From an uncultured delta proteobacterium (GTDB lineage: Bacteria > Desulfobacterota > BSN033 > UBA1163): 64,000 nucleotides of DNA. Positions 26,740 to 33,095 of the stretch are shown here, one piece after another; position 1 is the first letter of the stretch, and every line of letters starts with the position of its first letter. The position numbers were made by a program, and so were the translations under genes. The stretch is taken from contig CAVPSJ010000005.1 of the NCBI GenBank assembly GCA_963708295.1, positions 32,001 through 96,000 on the forward strand. The letters run 5' to 3'. The notes under the pieces were generated by a model that was given only the letters and a program-made list of their open reading frames with translations, was not told the DNA's origin and searched no databases.

Positions 26740-29700
26740 TTAAATTTCTTCCCTCTTCTCCTCGACGAGTTCCGTGTCGAGACAGAGGCTCTGTAATTCC
26801 TTCACCAAAACGTTGAATGACTCCGGCAACCCGGGCTCCAGCGTATGTTCCCCTTTGACGATCGCCTCGTAGACCCGCGTCCTTCCCGCGACATCATCCG
26901 ACTTCACGGTCAAGAACTCTTGCAGGGAATGAGCTGCCCCATAGGCCTCTAAGGCCCACACTTCCATCTCTCCCAACCGCTGTCCTCCGAACTGAGCCTT
27001 GCCACCCAACGGCTGTTGCGTCACCAAAGAATATGGACCGATGGACCTTGCATGAATCTTGTCGTCCACGAGGTGGTGCAATTTAAGGATGTACATGTAG
27101 CCGACCGTCACCTTCTGATGGAACGGCTCTCCCGTCCTTCCGTCATAAAGGACGGTTTGCCCGGAGGTCGGGAGTCCCGCTTTCTCCAAAAGGTTCTTAA
27201 TCTCCTCTTCCGAAGCTCCATCGAAAACAGGAACCGAAACGAAAATTCCTTCGCCCAACCGGCGAGCCAAATCCACAATCTCCTCGTCGGTCGCCTGCTC
27301 CAGATAGGTGTTCACCTCTTTCGAGGAATAAATTTCTTTGATCTTTCTTCGGAGCAAACTCGGATTGAAATGTTTCCGCAAAAACTCCTCGATCTTCCAT
27401 CCGAGCCCCTTGGCCGCCCATCCCAGGTGAGTCTCGAGAATCTGGCCTACGTTCATTCGCGACGGGACTCCCAGCGGATTGAGAATGACATCCACCGGCG
27501 TCCCATCCTCTAAGTACGGCATGTCCTCCTCCGGGAGAATCCGGGAGATGATCCCTTTGTTCCCGTGACGTCCTGACATTTTATCTCCTACAGAAAGTTT
27601 CCGTTTCATGGCGATATAAACCTTGACGGTCTTGATCACGCCCGGAGCCAATTCGTCTCCCCTCTTCAGCTTCGCCAATTTATCTGCAAAAACTTCCTTC
27701 ACCACGTTGATCTGGAGCTCTGCGTGATCCAGAAAACGGTGAACGTCCGCAAGAACCCTCTTCCCCTCGACGATATCAATCTCCTTGAGTCGGTCGAACG
27801 GAATGGTCATCAGATGTTCCTCTTTAATCTTATCTTTGGCCTCCAAATAGACCCTGTTTTTCTTGTCATCCGAAACTTTGTGGGCGGCCCGCTTCCCGGC
27901 CAAATATTTCCCGATTTTCCTCCTCGTGCTGTTCTGGATGATCCGGATTTCATCGGCCTGATTCTTTAACAACCTCGCCTTCTCCTGGTCCTCGATCGCC
28001 TTCGTCCTCTCGTCTCTCTCCTGTCCCTTCCGGGAAAAAACCTTAGCGTCAATCACAATTCCCTCAATCCCGTGAGGAACTCTCAACGAGGTATCCCGGA
28101 CGTCTCCAGCCTTTTCGCCAAAGATGGCTCGAAGGAGTTTTTCTTCCGGGGAGAGTTGGGTTTCTCCCTTGGGGGTCACTTTTCCGACGAGAATGTCGCC
28201 GGGGTTCACCTCGGCTCCGATCCGGATGATCCCGCTCTCATCCAAGTCCTTCAAGGCCTCCTCCCCCGCATTGGGAATGTCACAGGTGATCTCCTCTTTT
28301 CCTAACTTGGTGTCCCGGGCCACACACTCCATTTCTTCGATATGGATCGAGGTGTAGGTATCTTCCTTCAGCAGCTTCTCGCTCATGAGGATGGAGTCTT
28401 CAAAATTATATCCCCCCCAGGGCATAAAGCCGACCAGGACATTCCGTCCCAGAGCCAACTCTCCCATATTGGTCGCTGGCCCGTCTGCGATCACCTCACC
28501 CTTCTTGACGTGTTCTCCGGTATAGACGATCGGCCTTTGATTGATGCAGGTATTTTGATTGGACCTTTTGTATTTAATCAACGTATAGATATCGACTCCC
28601 GGGTCATCCGCTTTTTGACCATCCTCGTCAGCACGGATGACGATTCGTGAGGCATCGACATCTTCCACCACGCCATCTCGTTTGGCCACGATCGTCACCC
28701 CGGAATCTCTCGCCACGATCGCTTCCATTCCCGTCCCGATCAACGGGGCATCGGTCTTGAGGAGCGGGACGGCCTGGCGCTGCATATTCGATCCCATGAG
28801 GGCTCGGTTGGCATCATCATTCTCCAAAAAGGGAACGAGGGAGGTGGCCACGCTCACCAGCTGCTTCGGCGACACATCCATGTACCGAATCTCATCGGAT
28901 TTTACCATCATAAACTCGCCCCCTCTTCGGGCGGAGATGAGCGGAGCGGTAAATCTCCCTTCTTTATCCAACGGGGCGTTGGCTTGAGCAATGGCGGGTT
29001 TTTGCCCGTCAACCTCTTCCTCCTCATCCAGGGCAAAGAGATATCGGATATGGTTGGTGACTTTTCCATGGGACACTTCCCGGTAAGGGGTCTCGATAAA
29101 CCCATAGTCATTGACGCGGGCATAGGTGCTGAGAGAGGTGATCAAGCCGATGTTCGGGCCTTCCGGGGTCTCGATCGGGCAGATTCGACCATAATGGGTG
29201 GGGTGGACGTCCCTCACCTCAAACCCTGCCCTTTCTCGGGTGAGCCCGCCGGGGCCCAATGCAGACAGCCGACGCTTGTGCGTAATCTCTGAAAGAGGGT
29301 TCGTCTGGTCCATAAATTGGGAAAGCTGGCTCGAACCAAAGAACTCCTTGATGACGGCTGATAGCGGTTTTGAGTTGATGAGATCATGGGGCATCAGGGT
29401 CTCCACATCTTGAAGACTCATTCGCTCCTTAATCGCCCTTTCGATCCTCACAAGCCCGATGTGGTATTGATTCTCCAGCAGCTCTCCCACGGTCCTGACA
29501 CGGCGGTTTCCCAAATGGTCAATGTCGTCCACCGCCCCCTGACCATCTTTCAGTTTGATCAAGTATTTAACCACCTCAAGGATGTCTTTTCGCCTCAGGG
29601 TGGTCTTCTCATCTTCCAGAATCTTCCGAATCTTCCCCTGAACATCATCCGTGAGGGTCCCATCCTTCATGGAGGGCATCAGCCCGATGGGATGAAGGAT

Positions 29701-31200
29701 CTTGGCGACGCGATGTATCTCCTCGGCCATTTCCGGAGTGGCAATGGCTTCATCAAAATCAAGCCAGCCCTCCAGGATCCGATCGACCAGCTCCCTTCCT
29801 CCCGCATAGGTCGCTCCTGCCGCCAAGGCCTCTTTCTTCCATCTCTCCGTTAAAACCAAGATCTTGGGAGGGTTCCCCTTCAGGCCGATTTTATGGTTCA
29901 GCTTCATCCTCCCCACTTTGGACAGGTCGTAGCGTTCGGCGTTGAAGAAAAGATTGTAGAAAAGGCCGATGGCTGTCTCGATCGTGGGAGGGTCTCCAGG
30001 ACGGAGCCTTTTGTAGATATCAATCAAAGCCTTTTCGGATTCCTTCTCTCGAAGAGATTTGCCGGGTTCGAGAACGGGCAATTTCTCTCTTTCTTCTGCG
30101 GTCAATCCGATCTTATCCATCACCAGTGTATCCCGCAATGAAGAGCTGACATTGATATTGTCGATGAACAGGATTTCGAAGGCCTCGACCTTCCTCTCCT
30201 TCATCGTGTCCAGTAGTTTTTCCGTCACCTCATCATTCGATTCGGCAATCACTTCCCCCGTTTCAGGGGCAACCACATCCTTCGCCAGGTATCGTCCGAT
30301 CAAATCCTCGGTTTCCACCGAAATGGTATTGATCTTCGCAAGCTCCAGCTTATCAAAAGCGTCCTCTGTAATCCGGCGATGCTTCTTCAGGATGAGCTTA
30401 TGCGTTTCCGGATCGAGGATATCGGAGGTGGCTTTCTGCCCCACCAATACCTCTCTTGCAATCTCTTTTTGAAATTTTCCTCTCCGGATCAGGACCTTCT
30501 CCTTACGATAGAAATAGTCCAACAGCTCTTCCCCGGTGTACTTGAGAGCCCGAAGGAGGACAGTGACAGGAATCTTCCGGCGTCGGTCGATTCTGACGTG
30601 GAGAAGATCTTTCTGGTCAAATTCGAAGTCGATCCAAGATCCACGGTATGGAATGATGCGTGCATAGTAGAACACCTTCCCACCGGTTTGGGGTTTGATT
30701 TGATCCTGGTCAAAAAAGACTCCAGGAGAGCGATGAAGTTGACTGACGATGACCCGCTCGGTCCCGTTCACAATGAACGTCCCGTTCTCGGTCATGAGGG
30801 GGATCTCACCAAAATAGACTTCTTGCTCTTTGACAGCCTTGATGCTCCTGGCCTTGGTTTCTTCGTTTATATCCCAGACCACCAGGCGGACCGTCACCTT
30901 GATCGGGGCAGCATAGGTCATCCCTCTGAGCAGGCATTCTTCCACATCGTACTTTGGCTCGGTCAGGCGGTAATTGACGAATTCAAGAGAAGCCGTTTCG
31001 TAAAAATCCTTAATCGGAAAGACGGTTTTGAATACCGCCTGAAGACCCACCGGTTCCCGTCTTTCCACATCCACATTGGCCTGAAGAAACTGCTCGTAGG
31101 ATCTTTTTTGAACCTCGATCAGATTGGAGATCTCCAGGACCTCTTTGATCTTAGAAAAGTTCTTCCGATATCTCCGATAGATAGGGACAACATTGGCCAT
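26740..31200 (-). CDS. rpoB: DNA-directed RNA polymerase subunit beta, with an inserted uL1 domain II-like domain
   Basis: [34 protein letters not shown]; unusually long (~1486 aa). Confidence 0.99.
29611..29880 (-). other. in-frame insertion in RpoB homologous to ribosomal protein uL1 domain II
   Basis: [13 protein letters not shown]...[14 protein letters not shown]...[20 protein letters not shown] versus rpl[14 protein letters not shown]...[14 protein letters not shown]...[20 protein letters not shown]. Confidence 0.92.
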
Positions 31201-31314
31201 AATCAATCCCCTCCCTTAAATAGAAAGTCTCTTCCCGTTCGGACTGCCACCGCTCCTTCGCTTTGTCCTTCTGAGAAGAGACAACAGGGTCCCTCAACAC
31301 CTCTGAATGTTTTG

Positions 31315-31704
31315 TTACTTAACTTCGGCCGTCCCCCCAGCCTCTTCAAGCTTTTTCTTCATCGCTGCGGCGTCGTCTTTCGAAACTCCTTCTTTGACTG
31401 GCTTGGGGACTCCTTCCACAAGGTCTTTGGCTTCCTTCAAACCCAATCCGGTCAGTTCTCTGACCACCTTAATCACTTGGATTTTCTTGTCACCAAAACC
31501 CGTCAGGATGACATCAAATTCTGTCTTTTCTTCAGCGGCAGCGGTTTCCGCTCCCGCACCCGCTCCGGCCATGGGCATCGCTGCCATCGCCATGGGCGCG
31601 GTGGCCTTGACTCCCAATTTTTCTTCCAGGGCCTTCACCAAGTCACGGGCTTCAAGCAAAGTTAAACCACTGATCTCTTCGGCAATCTTCTGGATATCTG
31701 ACAT
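31315..31704 (-). CDS. rplL: 50S ribosomal protein bL12 (L7/L12)
   Basis: [34 protein letters not shown]. Confidence 0.98.
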
Positions 31705-32387: not shown

Positions 32388-33095
32388 CTAGGACTTCAAA
32401 ACACTTCTGACATCCTGCGGGTCGATCTTAATTCCAGGCCCCATGGTGGTGGATAAAGCGATGCTCCGCATATAAATCCCCTTGCTGGTCGGGGGCTTTA
32501 CACGAAGGATGACTTCCAGGAGCGTCCGGGTATTCTCTAATAATGGGCCGAAACCAAAAGACACCTTTCCAACCGGGACATGGACAATCCCCGCCTTCTC
32601 TACCTTAAACTCCACCTTGCCTGCTTTGATCTCTCGAATGGCCTTTTCCAAGTCGAAAGTCACCGTTCCTACTTTGGGGTTAGGCATCAATCCGCGAGGC
32701 CCTAAAATCTTCCCTAGCTTACTGACCAAACCCATCATGTCCGGTGTGGCGATCGCTTTGTCAAATTCCAGCCATCCTTTTGAAATCTTCTCGATGAGGT
32801 CTTCTCCTCCCACAAAATCGGCAGCTGCATCGAGTGCCTCTTTCTCCTTCTGGCCCTTCGCGAAAACCAATACCCGGACTTTCTTGCCGGTGCCATGAGG
32901 GAGGACAACGGTCCCTCGGACCATTTGATCTGGTTTCTTTGGATCGACCCCGAGACGAATCGCCAGGTCCACTCCTTCGTCAAACTTAGCGCATGCCGTT
33001 TCCACGAGAAGTTTCACTCCCGCCTCCAGATCATACCGCTTGCTTCGATCCACCTTGCCTCTTGCCTCTAAGTATTTTTTTCCTCTCGTTGCCAT
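32388..33095 (-). CDS. rplA: 50S ribosomal protein uL1
   Basis: [41 protein letters not shown]. Confidence 0.99.

Follow-up and report, generated by a model that had tools for sequence, protein, structure and literature searches.

RNA polymerase (RNAP) insertions described in bacteria fall into a few recurring classes (BBM2/BEAN and SBHM/HABAS) that are placed deep in bacterial history, with most β subunit inserts assigned to the BEAN class and insertion inferred to cease in late-diverging groups (PMC11515920). Among the sites of lineage inserts the β lobe is regarded as a hot spot, and it has been considered a possible platform for factors specific to a lineage (PMC7749167; bioRxiv 10.1101/2021.06.06.447298). 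Two described β insertions are closest to the one reported here. β-i4 of the E. coli type consists of two BBM2 repeats at residues 225-343 of the β2 domain (E. coli residues 152-443) and has a highly acidic exposed surface (PMC2939025). The Firmicutes insertion β-i5/β-ln5 (SI1) is of the BEAN domain class (PMC11515920), and in B. subtilis it carries a TGE hairpin that binds the Tudor domain of PcrA (PMC8318588). Here, an insert homologous to domain II of ribosomal protein uL1 is described in the rpoB gene of an uncultured delta proteobacterium, encoded in a stretch of 64,000 nucleotides (contig CAVPSJ010000005.1, positions 32,001 to 96,000, GenBank assembly GCA_963708295.1) that is referred to below as the window.

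A domain type common to RNAP large subunits and a ribosomal protein has a precedent in BEAN, which occurs in RNAP inserts and in archaeal uL10 (Alvarez-Carreno et al. 2024, PMC11515920), and it was suggested in the same work that gene neighbourhood influenced its acquisition. However, BEAN is an insert in both of its hosts and has a deep history (PMC11515920), whereas in the present case a core ribosomal-protein domain appears to have been copied late and in one family. A literature search whose scope did not take in Lane and Darst 2010, Iyer et al. 2004 and the supplements of PMC11515920 found no account of an insertion in RNAP that stems from a ribosomal protein, in agreement with the initial annotation of the window, in which the insert was first pointed out and none was known.

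Identification of a uL1 domain II module in RpoB

The insert is an in-frame segment of 90 residues within the 1488-codon open reading frame (ORF) of rpoB (Table 1), and the minus-strand translation of its coordinates is exactly the sequence given in the initial annotation. In a BLASTP comparison with the uL1 protein of the same genome, 41 of 87 positions are identical (47%) with one gap (E 4e-24, uL1 residues 70-156), the earlier count by hand having been 41 identities in 91 columns. The Pfam family Ribosomal_L1, for which the curated cut-off is 32.2 bits, scores 58.8 bits in RpoB, where profile positions 28-139 of 198 are covered, and 58.2 bits when only the insert is compared. This profile comparison had been proposed at the outset, and together with the BLASTP result it upholds the claim that domain II of uL1 is present in RpoB as an in-frame copy. 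In addition, 38 solved uL1 sequences match the insert with E up to 1e-8 when it is aligned to the sequences of the solved chains. An AlphaFold2 (AF2) model of the insert alone, made with an input alignment of 35 inserts and uL1 domains, has a mean predicted local distance difference test (pLDDT) score of 91.5, a predicted template modelling (pTM) score of 0.82 and an alternating order of strands and helices.

These matches identify the insert as a homologue of uL1 domain II alone. As the Ribosomal_L1 profile is covered only at positions 28/43-139 of 198, the full uL1 architecture is absent, which marks the segment as a domain II module and not as a complete uL1 protein. Ribosomal_L1 was the only Pfam family matched by the insert, and hence membership of the BEAN (CATH 3.90.105.10) or BBM2 classes was not found, though no direct comparison with a BEAN profile was made. 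An intein or a mobile element was also considered and rejected, given that the sole family match was to Ribosomal_L1 and that the segment is conserved as protein; no dedicated scan for intein motifs was run.

Insertion site in the β2 lobe

The sequences flanking the insert match solved E. coli-like β chains up to residue ~411 and resume at ~415-418, and the insertion point lies inside the β2 domain, between blocks common to all bacterial β subunits. In the RpoB proteins of sister families the flanks abut directly, revealing a single clean indel with a net gain of ~86 residues and confirming the clean domain boundaries described in the initial annotation. Over the aligned β2 stretch, the two sister families have 357 codons where the window's family has 444, and the difference of exactly 87 is the size of the insert. 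At the same loop, ~90-110 extra residues are found in Bacillus and Clostridium, ~130 in two Geobacter-like metagenome-assembled genomes (MAGs) and 25-75 in several Proteobacteria, and the β-chain alignments bear out the earlier statement that Proteobacteria have a short linker, and Bacillus an insertion, at this site. None of the nine segments from outside the family that were tested at the loop matched Ribosomal_L1.

In alignment A3, the hairpin motif through which B. subtilis RpoB binds the Tudor domain of PcrA (PMC8318588) falls right at the insert junction, and the insertion site is therefore that of Firmicutes β-i5/β-ln5/SI1. The two insertions have in common this point, between the GRMK.N block and the following helix, a restriction to one lineage and a similar added length. 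In contrast, the Firmicutes insertion spans a phylum and the uL1 insert one family, and their sequences are unrelated. SI1 has no Ribosomal_L1 match, whereas the uL1 insert matches this family and lacks the hairpin motif.

E. coli-type β-i4 resembles the uL1 insert in being a lineage insert of the same β2 domain with an acidic surface (PMC2939025), but it occupies another site and belongs to another fold family. A β-i4-like region common to the window's family and its sister families is also kept in this RpoB, and the uL1 module is therefore an addition and not a replacement. The helicase-interaction motif is [VIL]-D-x-x-T-G-E-[VIL]-[VILT] (PMC8318588). A regular expression search found no such motif in the uL1 insert, and the sole near match in RpoB, VAPETGEVI, lies in the β-i4-like region and is one residue off, with Ala in place of Asp.

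Inserts of ~25-130 residues that are mutually unrelated were seen at the same loop in L014, L015, L016, L017, L019, L020 and L030 (Proteobacteria, Myxococcota-like and Acidobacteriota). The ~130-residue inserts in L014:4501-5196 and L015:4501-5193, from Geobacter-like and 'delta proteobacterium' MAGs, look helical by sequence. None of these loop inserts had a Pfam match above the cut-off.

Distribution of the insert

In a class set of 68 genomes, the insert was present in 52 of the 55 genomes of the window's family (51 of 54 others and the window's own), representing 21 genera, with E up to 1e-25, and in none of the eight and five genomes of the two sister families. The three family genomes with no match to the insert (69, 79 and 87% complete) also had no match to the conserved flanks or to uL1, and these misses are therefore attributed to the region not being assembled. 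Among the nearest 40 genomes, all 24 family members (11 genera) carry the insert, 23 of them at full length (82-94% identity) and the last truncated where its contig ends. When the phylum was sampled evenly, the insert was matched in 12 of 401 genomes, all belonging to the window's family; none of the remaining 389, from 110 other families, did.

The insert thus occurs throughout one lineage and was absent from the relatives sampled, and it belongs to the known lineage-specific RNAP insertions. This distribution is most simply explained by one gain at the base of the family. Ancestral presence followed by many losses was rejected, since it would require losses in the 110 sampled families and in other phyla.

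The best 120 hits in protein collections were all RpoB proteins with PF00687, from JGI, ENA, NCBI and Logan, and the insert is present in more than 120 protein clusters. Few of the hits are named, as 'Syntrophaceae', 'Desulfobacterota' or 'Thermodesulfobacteriota bacterium' MAGs, and no cultured member was seen among these 120. The representative library is clustered at 50% identity, so that full-length RpoBs of the family are hidden behind representatives with no insert, and its search gave only four family RpoB fragments (P0141-P0144). A universal RpoB pattern applied to genome contigs found one family member among at least 80 loci, and a search of the ESM Atlas for insert-bearing RpoB gave generic RpoB clusters only. 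Independent uL1-derived RpoB inserts may occur in other phyla.

In genome G048 (G048:C33, ~72-78 kb, L124-L127), both the insert region and rplA are broken, with five TGA and one TAA codons and open frames of 74-315 residues. Because the whole stretch is frameshifted, this copy was not counted as decay, and assembly indel errors are the most likely cause.

Isolated segments resembling uL1 domain II were also observed outside the window, inside unrelated multidomain metagenome proteins that are possibly chimeras. They include P0253 (1017 aa; TIR_2, Ribosomal_L1 at residues 552-646 and four Sel1 repeats), P0148 (463 aa; a lipoprotein-like N-terminus, Ribosomal_L1 at 119-227 and FGE-sulfatase), P0293 (1750 aa; RCC1 repeats and Ribosomal_L1) and P0294 (888 aa; Ribosomal_L10, LRR and Ribosomal_L1). 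Such uL1 grafts are rare, as only three of 105 candidate proteins passed E 1e-5.

Continuity of the sequence across the junctions

That an assembly chimera or a frame artefact fused an rplA-like sequence to rpoB might be suspected, since rplA and rpoB lie close together in a draft genome of 20 contigs. However, the identity between the insert and rplA domain II at the DNA level is 55% overall and 38% at third codon positions. Hence no repeat able to mislead the assembler is present, and the duplication is old. The insert is moreover in frame, and it is found in 52 separately assembled genomes and in the many protein clusters from several sources noted above. Four public runs were also examined as contigs, which can show presence and carry no claim on depth or expression, and contigs of other runs bridge the insert as the initial annotation had asked of reads. 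Record 28 of X7 spans both junctions (29386-29973) with seven differences and no gaps, and record 3 of X1 does so at 29375-30200, although X1 may be the source sample. Records 20 and 24 of X6, from an RNA library, each bridge one junction. Positions 29982-30074 are uncovered in run X3, and a contig of X1 skips 29331-29510 at depth 2; neither was counted as evidence. An artefact is accordingly considered to have a negligible probability.

Selection on the insert and its probable donor

Ratios of nonsynonymous to synonymous substitution rates (dN/dS) were calculated pairwise by the Nei-Gojobori method (NG86) from 17 full-length genes of the family, with the comparison restricted to the 41 pairs in which dS for the rest of rpoB is below 1.5. 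The dN/dS was 0.099 for the insert, 0.047 for β-i4 and 0.031 for the rest of rpoB, and in native uL1 it was 0.048 for domain II and 0.065 for domain I. Mean amino acid identities of the insert, β-i4 and the rest of rpoB were 79.8%, 79.9% and 92.2%, respectively, the β-i4 of the family thus evolving at an amino acid rate like that of the insert. Across the 17 sequences, 32 of the 90 insert columns are invariant and 12 more are nearly so. The insert is under purifying selection.

Phylogenetic trees that combine the inserts with uL1 domain II place all inserts in a single clade with support of 99-100 in the Shimodaira-Hasegawa-like approximate likelihood ratio test (SH-aLRT). Its stem measures 1.53 substitutions per site, compared with 0 to 0.39 for the end branches in the insert and family-uL1 clades. 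Between the first and the second tree, the latter a quick tree search, 14 long-branch or compositionally odd rows were removed. These trees and the dN/dS estimates answer analyses suggested in the initial annotation, and its view that the insertion is an old, selected event and not a misassembly is sustained by the 52 genomes, the junction-spanning contigs and the dN/dS values.

The most economical source of the insert, and probably the donor, would be the lineage's own rplA, which lies 3 kb upstream in the same cluster and on the same strand. A transfer of the domain from the rplA of another lineage, which would concern the origin only and is independent of function, is less easily reconciled with the profile comparison, in which uL1 domain II sequences of the insert's own class scored 85-99 bits and held the top 14 of 91 ranks. 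Library uL1 sequences came nearly as high, the best hits from 1.84 billion representatives reaching at most 93.4 bits (P0145, 93.4 bits in the library search; P0147, 90 bits). The attachment of the insert clade among uL1 sequences has no firm support in any of the three trees, and midpoint rooting places the insert outside all uL1, which would be compatible with a foreign donor. Nevertheless, joining the insert and the family uL1 in one clade costs only 3.1 log-likelihood units and was not rejected by the approximately unbiased (AU) test (p 0.436), for which the 55 rows were 9 of 19 inserts, 9 of 19 family uL1, 9 from the class, 2 from the phylum and 26 of 61 representatives. On balance, a foreign donor is regarded as unlikely.

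Changed chemistry of the insert

Native uL1 domain II, the centre of PF00687, and the insert share 24 positions that are fixed and identical in both, including GW.FD, ATP, K60, GLMP and the G.T of GT.T.D. The insert differs from it in lying inside another protein with no domain I, in a one-residue deletion and in eight fixed replacements (uL1 to insert: A to T, K to E, K to E, D to E, V to I, K to R, R to I and G to D). The conserved 10-residue uL1 motif is altered in the insert, as was noted at first, and canonical in the rplA product. The net charge of the inserts is -3 (range -5 to -2) compared with +3 for the family uL1 domain II.

In the Thermus 70S ribosome, Arg135 of uL1 domain II lies in the groove of helix 77, and Arg130 touches A2169 and G19 of the tRNA (PMC3602588). 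When these positions were mapped by offset count on the alignments, the equivalent of Arg135 was Ile65 in 17 of 17 inserts and that of Arg130 was Lys60 in all, and the insert therefore lacks the Thermus-type arginine pair. RNA binding by uL1 belongs to domain I, with domain II merely stabilising the complex (PMC10931766). Among the functions raised in the initial annotation, those involving RNA binding or contact with the ribosome are now less likely because of the charge reversal, the invariant Ile65 and the absence of domain I.

Possible role of the insert

In an ancestor of one uncultured Thermodesulfobacteriota family, rpoB acquired uL1 domain II as an in-frame copy within the β2 lobe, and all family members in which this part of the gene is assembled retain it. 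The copy probably changed fast after insertion and has since been held by purifying selection. With the helix-77 arginine gone and its basic charge replaced by an acidic one, it would no longer be an RNA-binding piece of the L1 stalk and would add to the lobe a folded module, exposed to solvent and next to β-i4. The likeliest role of this module would be to offer a transcription factor, or a further part of RNAP, a docking or steric surface specific to the lineage, as has been proposed for other lobe insertions. That the family-level graft became a recruited lobe surface module that docks proteins rather than binding RNA is given about an even chance on the comparisons made here. Several points weigh against it. 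No partner of the insert is known and none was searched for, and the exposure of the module and its proximity to β-i4 are taken from the insertion site and not from a model in the RNAP context. The dN/dS of the insert is 2-3 times that of β-i4 and the rest of rpoB, the pairs used share branches and hence are not independent, and the value would also fit a domain retained solely because its misfolding would damage the essential enzyme. The retention of the basic Lys60 at the position of Thermus Arg130 makes some RNA contact possible, and the trees give the donor no firm position.

The main competing explanation is that the uL1 domain sits in a permissive loop with no role of its own and is kept folded and soluble to spare β, the negative shift in charge merely preventing it from sticking to nucleic acids near the DNA channel. 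The tolerance of this loop for unrelated inserts of ~25-130 residues in other lineages is consistent with such a passenger, as are the absence of Ribosomal_L1 from the nine non-family loop segments and the weaker constraint on the insert than on any other region of rpoB that was measured (dN/dS 0.099 vs 0.031-0.047; identity 79.8% vs 92.2%). Most lineage-specific inserts are, moreover, described as having no known function (PMC7749167). However, a dN/dS of ~0.10 is as low as that of native uL1 (0.05-0.09), and neither the 32 invariant and 12 nearly invariant columns nor the lack of any loss or decay in 52 genomes of 21 genera, the broken copy in G048 being part of a frameshifted stretch, is readily expected of a passenger. 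A burst of change followed by constraint also exceeds what tolerance requires. A passenger is therefore a serious but rather doubtful alternative.

It is improbable that the module retains an activity like that of the L1 stalk and recognises either an RNA (the tRNA elbow, or an RNA that is nascent or rRNA-like) or one of the translation factors in contact with uL1. The origin of the insert in a protein of the translation machinery, whose gene belongs to the same cluster, would fit such an activity, as would the 24 fixed positions common to the insert and uL1 and the alignment of Lys60 with the arginine that contacts A2169 and G19 in Thermus. On the other hand, domain I, the seat of RNA binding in uL1, is absent, the Arg135 equivalent is an invariant Ile, and the charge has changed from +3 to -3, with three of the eight fixed differences giving Glu for a Lys or Asp of uL1. 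In expressome structures, ribosomes couple at the RNA exit and the lobe is remote from it, on the side of the downstream DNA, which counts against this activity as well. The narrower proposal that the grafted domain still binds a ligand of the L1 stalk (the tRNA elbow, rRNA-like RNA or an E-site factor touching uL1) is held to be very improbable; if true, the RNAP of the family would be linked directly to tRNA or the translation machinery.

Gene context

The minus-strand gene order is tuf-secE-nusG-rplK-rplA-rplJ-rplL-rpoB-rpoC, and every gene was confirmed by Pfam. The rpoB ORF was called from a TTG at 31206 (31200-31206, minus strand), whereas homologues on record have 1486 residues, and the true start is therefore likely to be the ATG two codons in. 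An ORF of 428 codons that is antisense to rpoB (30379-31665, plus strand) has no Pfam family match and, lying opposite a long gene, is likely to be a shadow ORF.

Table 1. Features of the rpoB and rplA region, with positions counted from the first nucleotide of the window.
Feature	Position	Strand	Basis or remark
rpoB, RNA polymerase β subunit	26740..31206	-	Six Rpb2 Pfam domains and Ribosomal_L1
Conserved block, C-terminal side of the junction	29500..29610	-	Alignments with sister RpoBs and solved β chains
uL1-domain-II-derived insert	29611..29880	-	Residues 441-530 of the 1486-aa RpoB; BLASTP, Pfam and sister alignment
Conserved 18-residue β2 block, N-terminal side of the junction	29881..29934	-	Alignments with sister RpoBs and solved β chains
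β-i4 (SI1)-like lineage insert, same lobe	30184..30507	-	Putative placement from the description of E. coli β-i4 (PMC2939025), not aligned
VAPETGEVI, near the PcrA/UvrD helicase-interaction motif	30247..30273	-	Regular expression and translation; residue 310, β-i4-like region
rplA, native full-length uL1, canonical 10-residue motif	32388..33095	-	Pfam Ribosomal_L1, 227.6 bits, profile 1-198
Native uL1 domain II, probable source of the insert	32619..32891	-	2.7-3.0 kb upstream, same strand, same cluster

Implications

The insert contrasts with the described RNAP insertions in that its gain is datable to the level of a family, that a ribosomal-protein core domain can be recognised as its donor and that this probable donor lies 3 kb upstream in the same cluster. 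A graft that is datable at the family level implies that new domains could still enter the lobe hot spot. The insert offers a natural example of domain grafting in which a burst of change was followed by constraint, and as a signature of the clade it is a possible taxonomic marker. If the insert has a partner, it would represent a lineage-specific layer of transcription control in these syntroph-related anaerobes.

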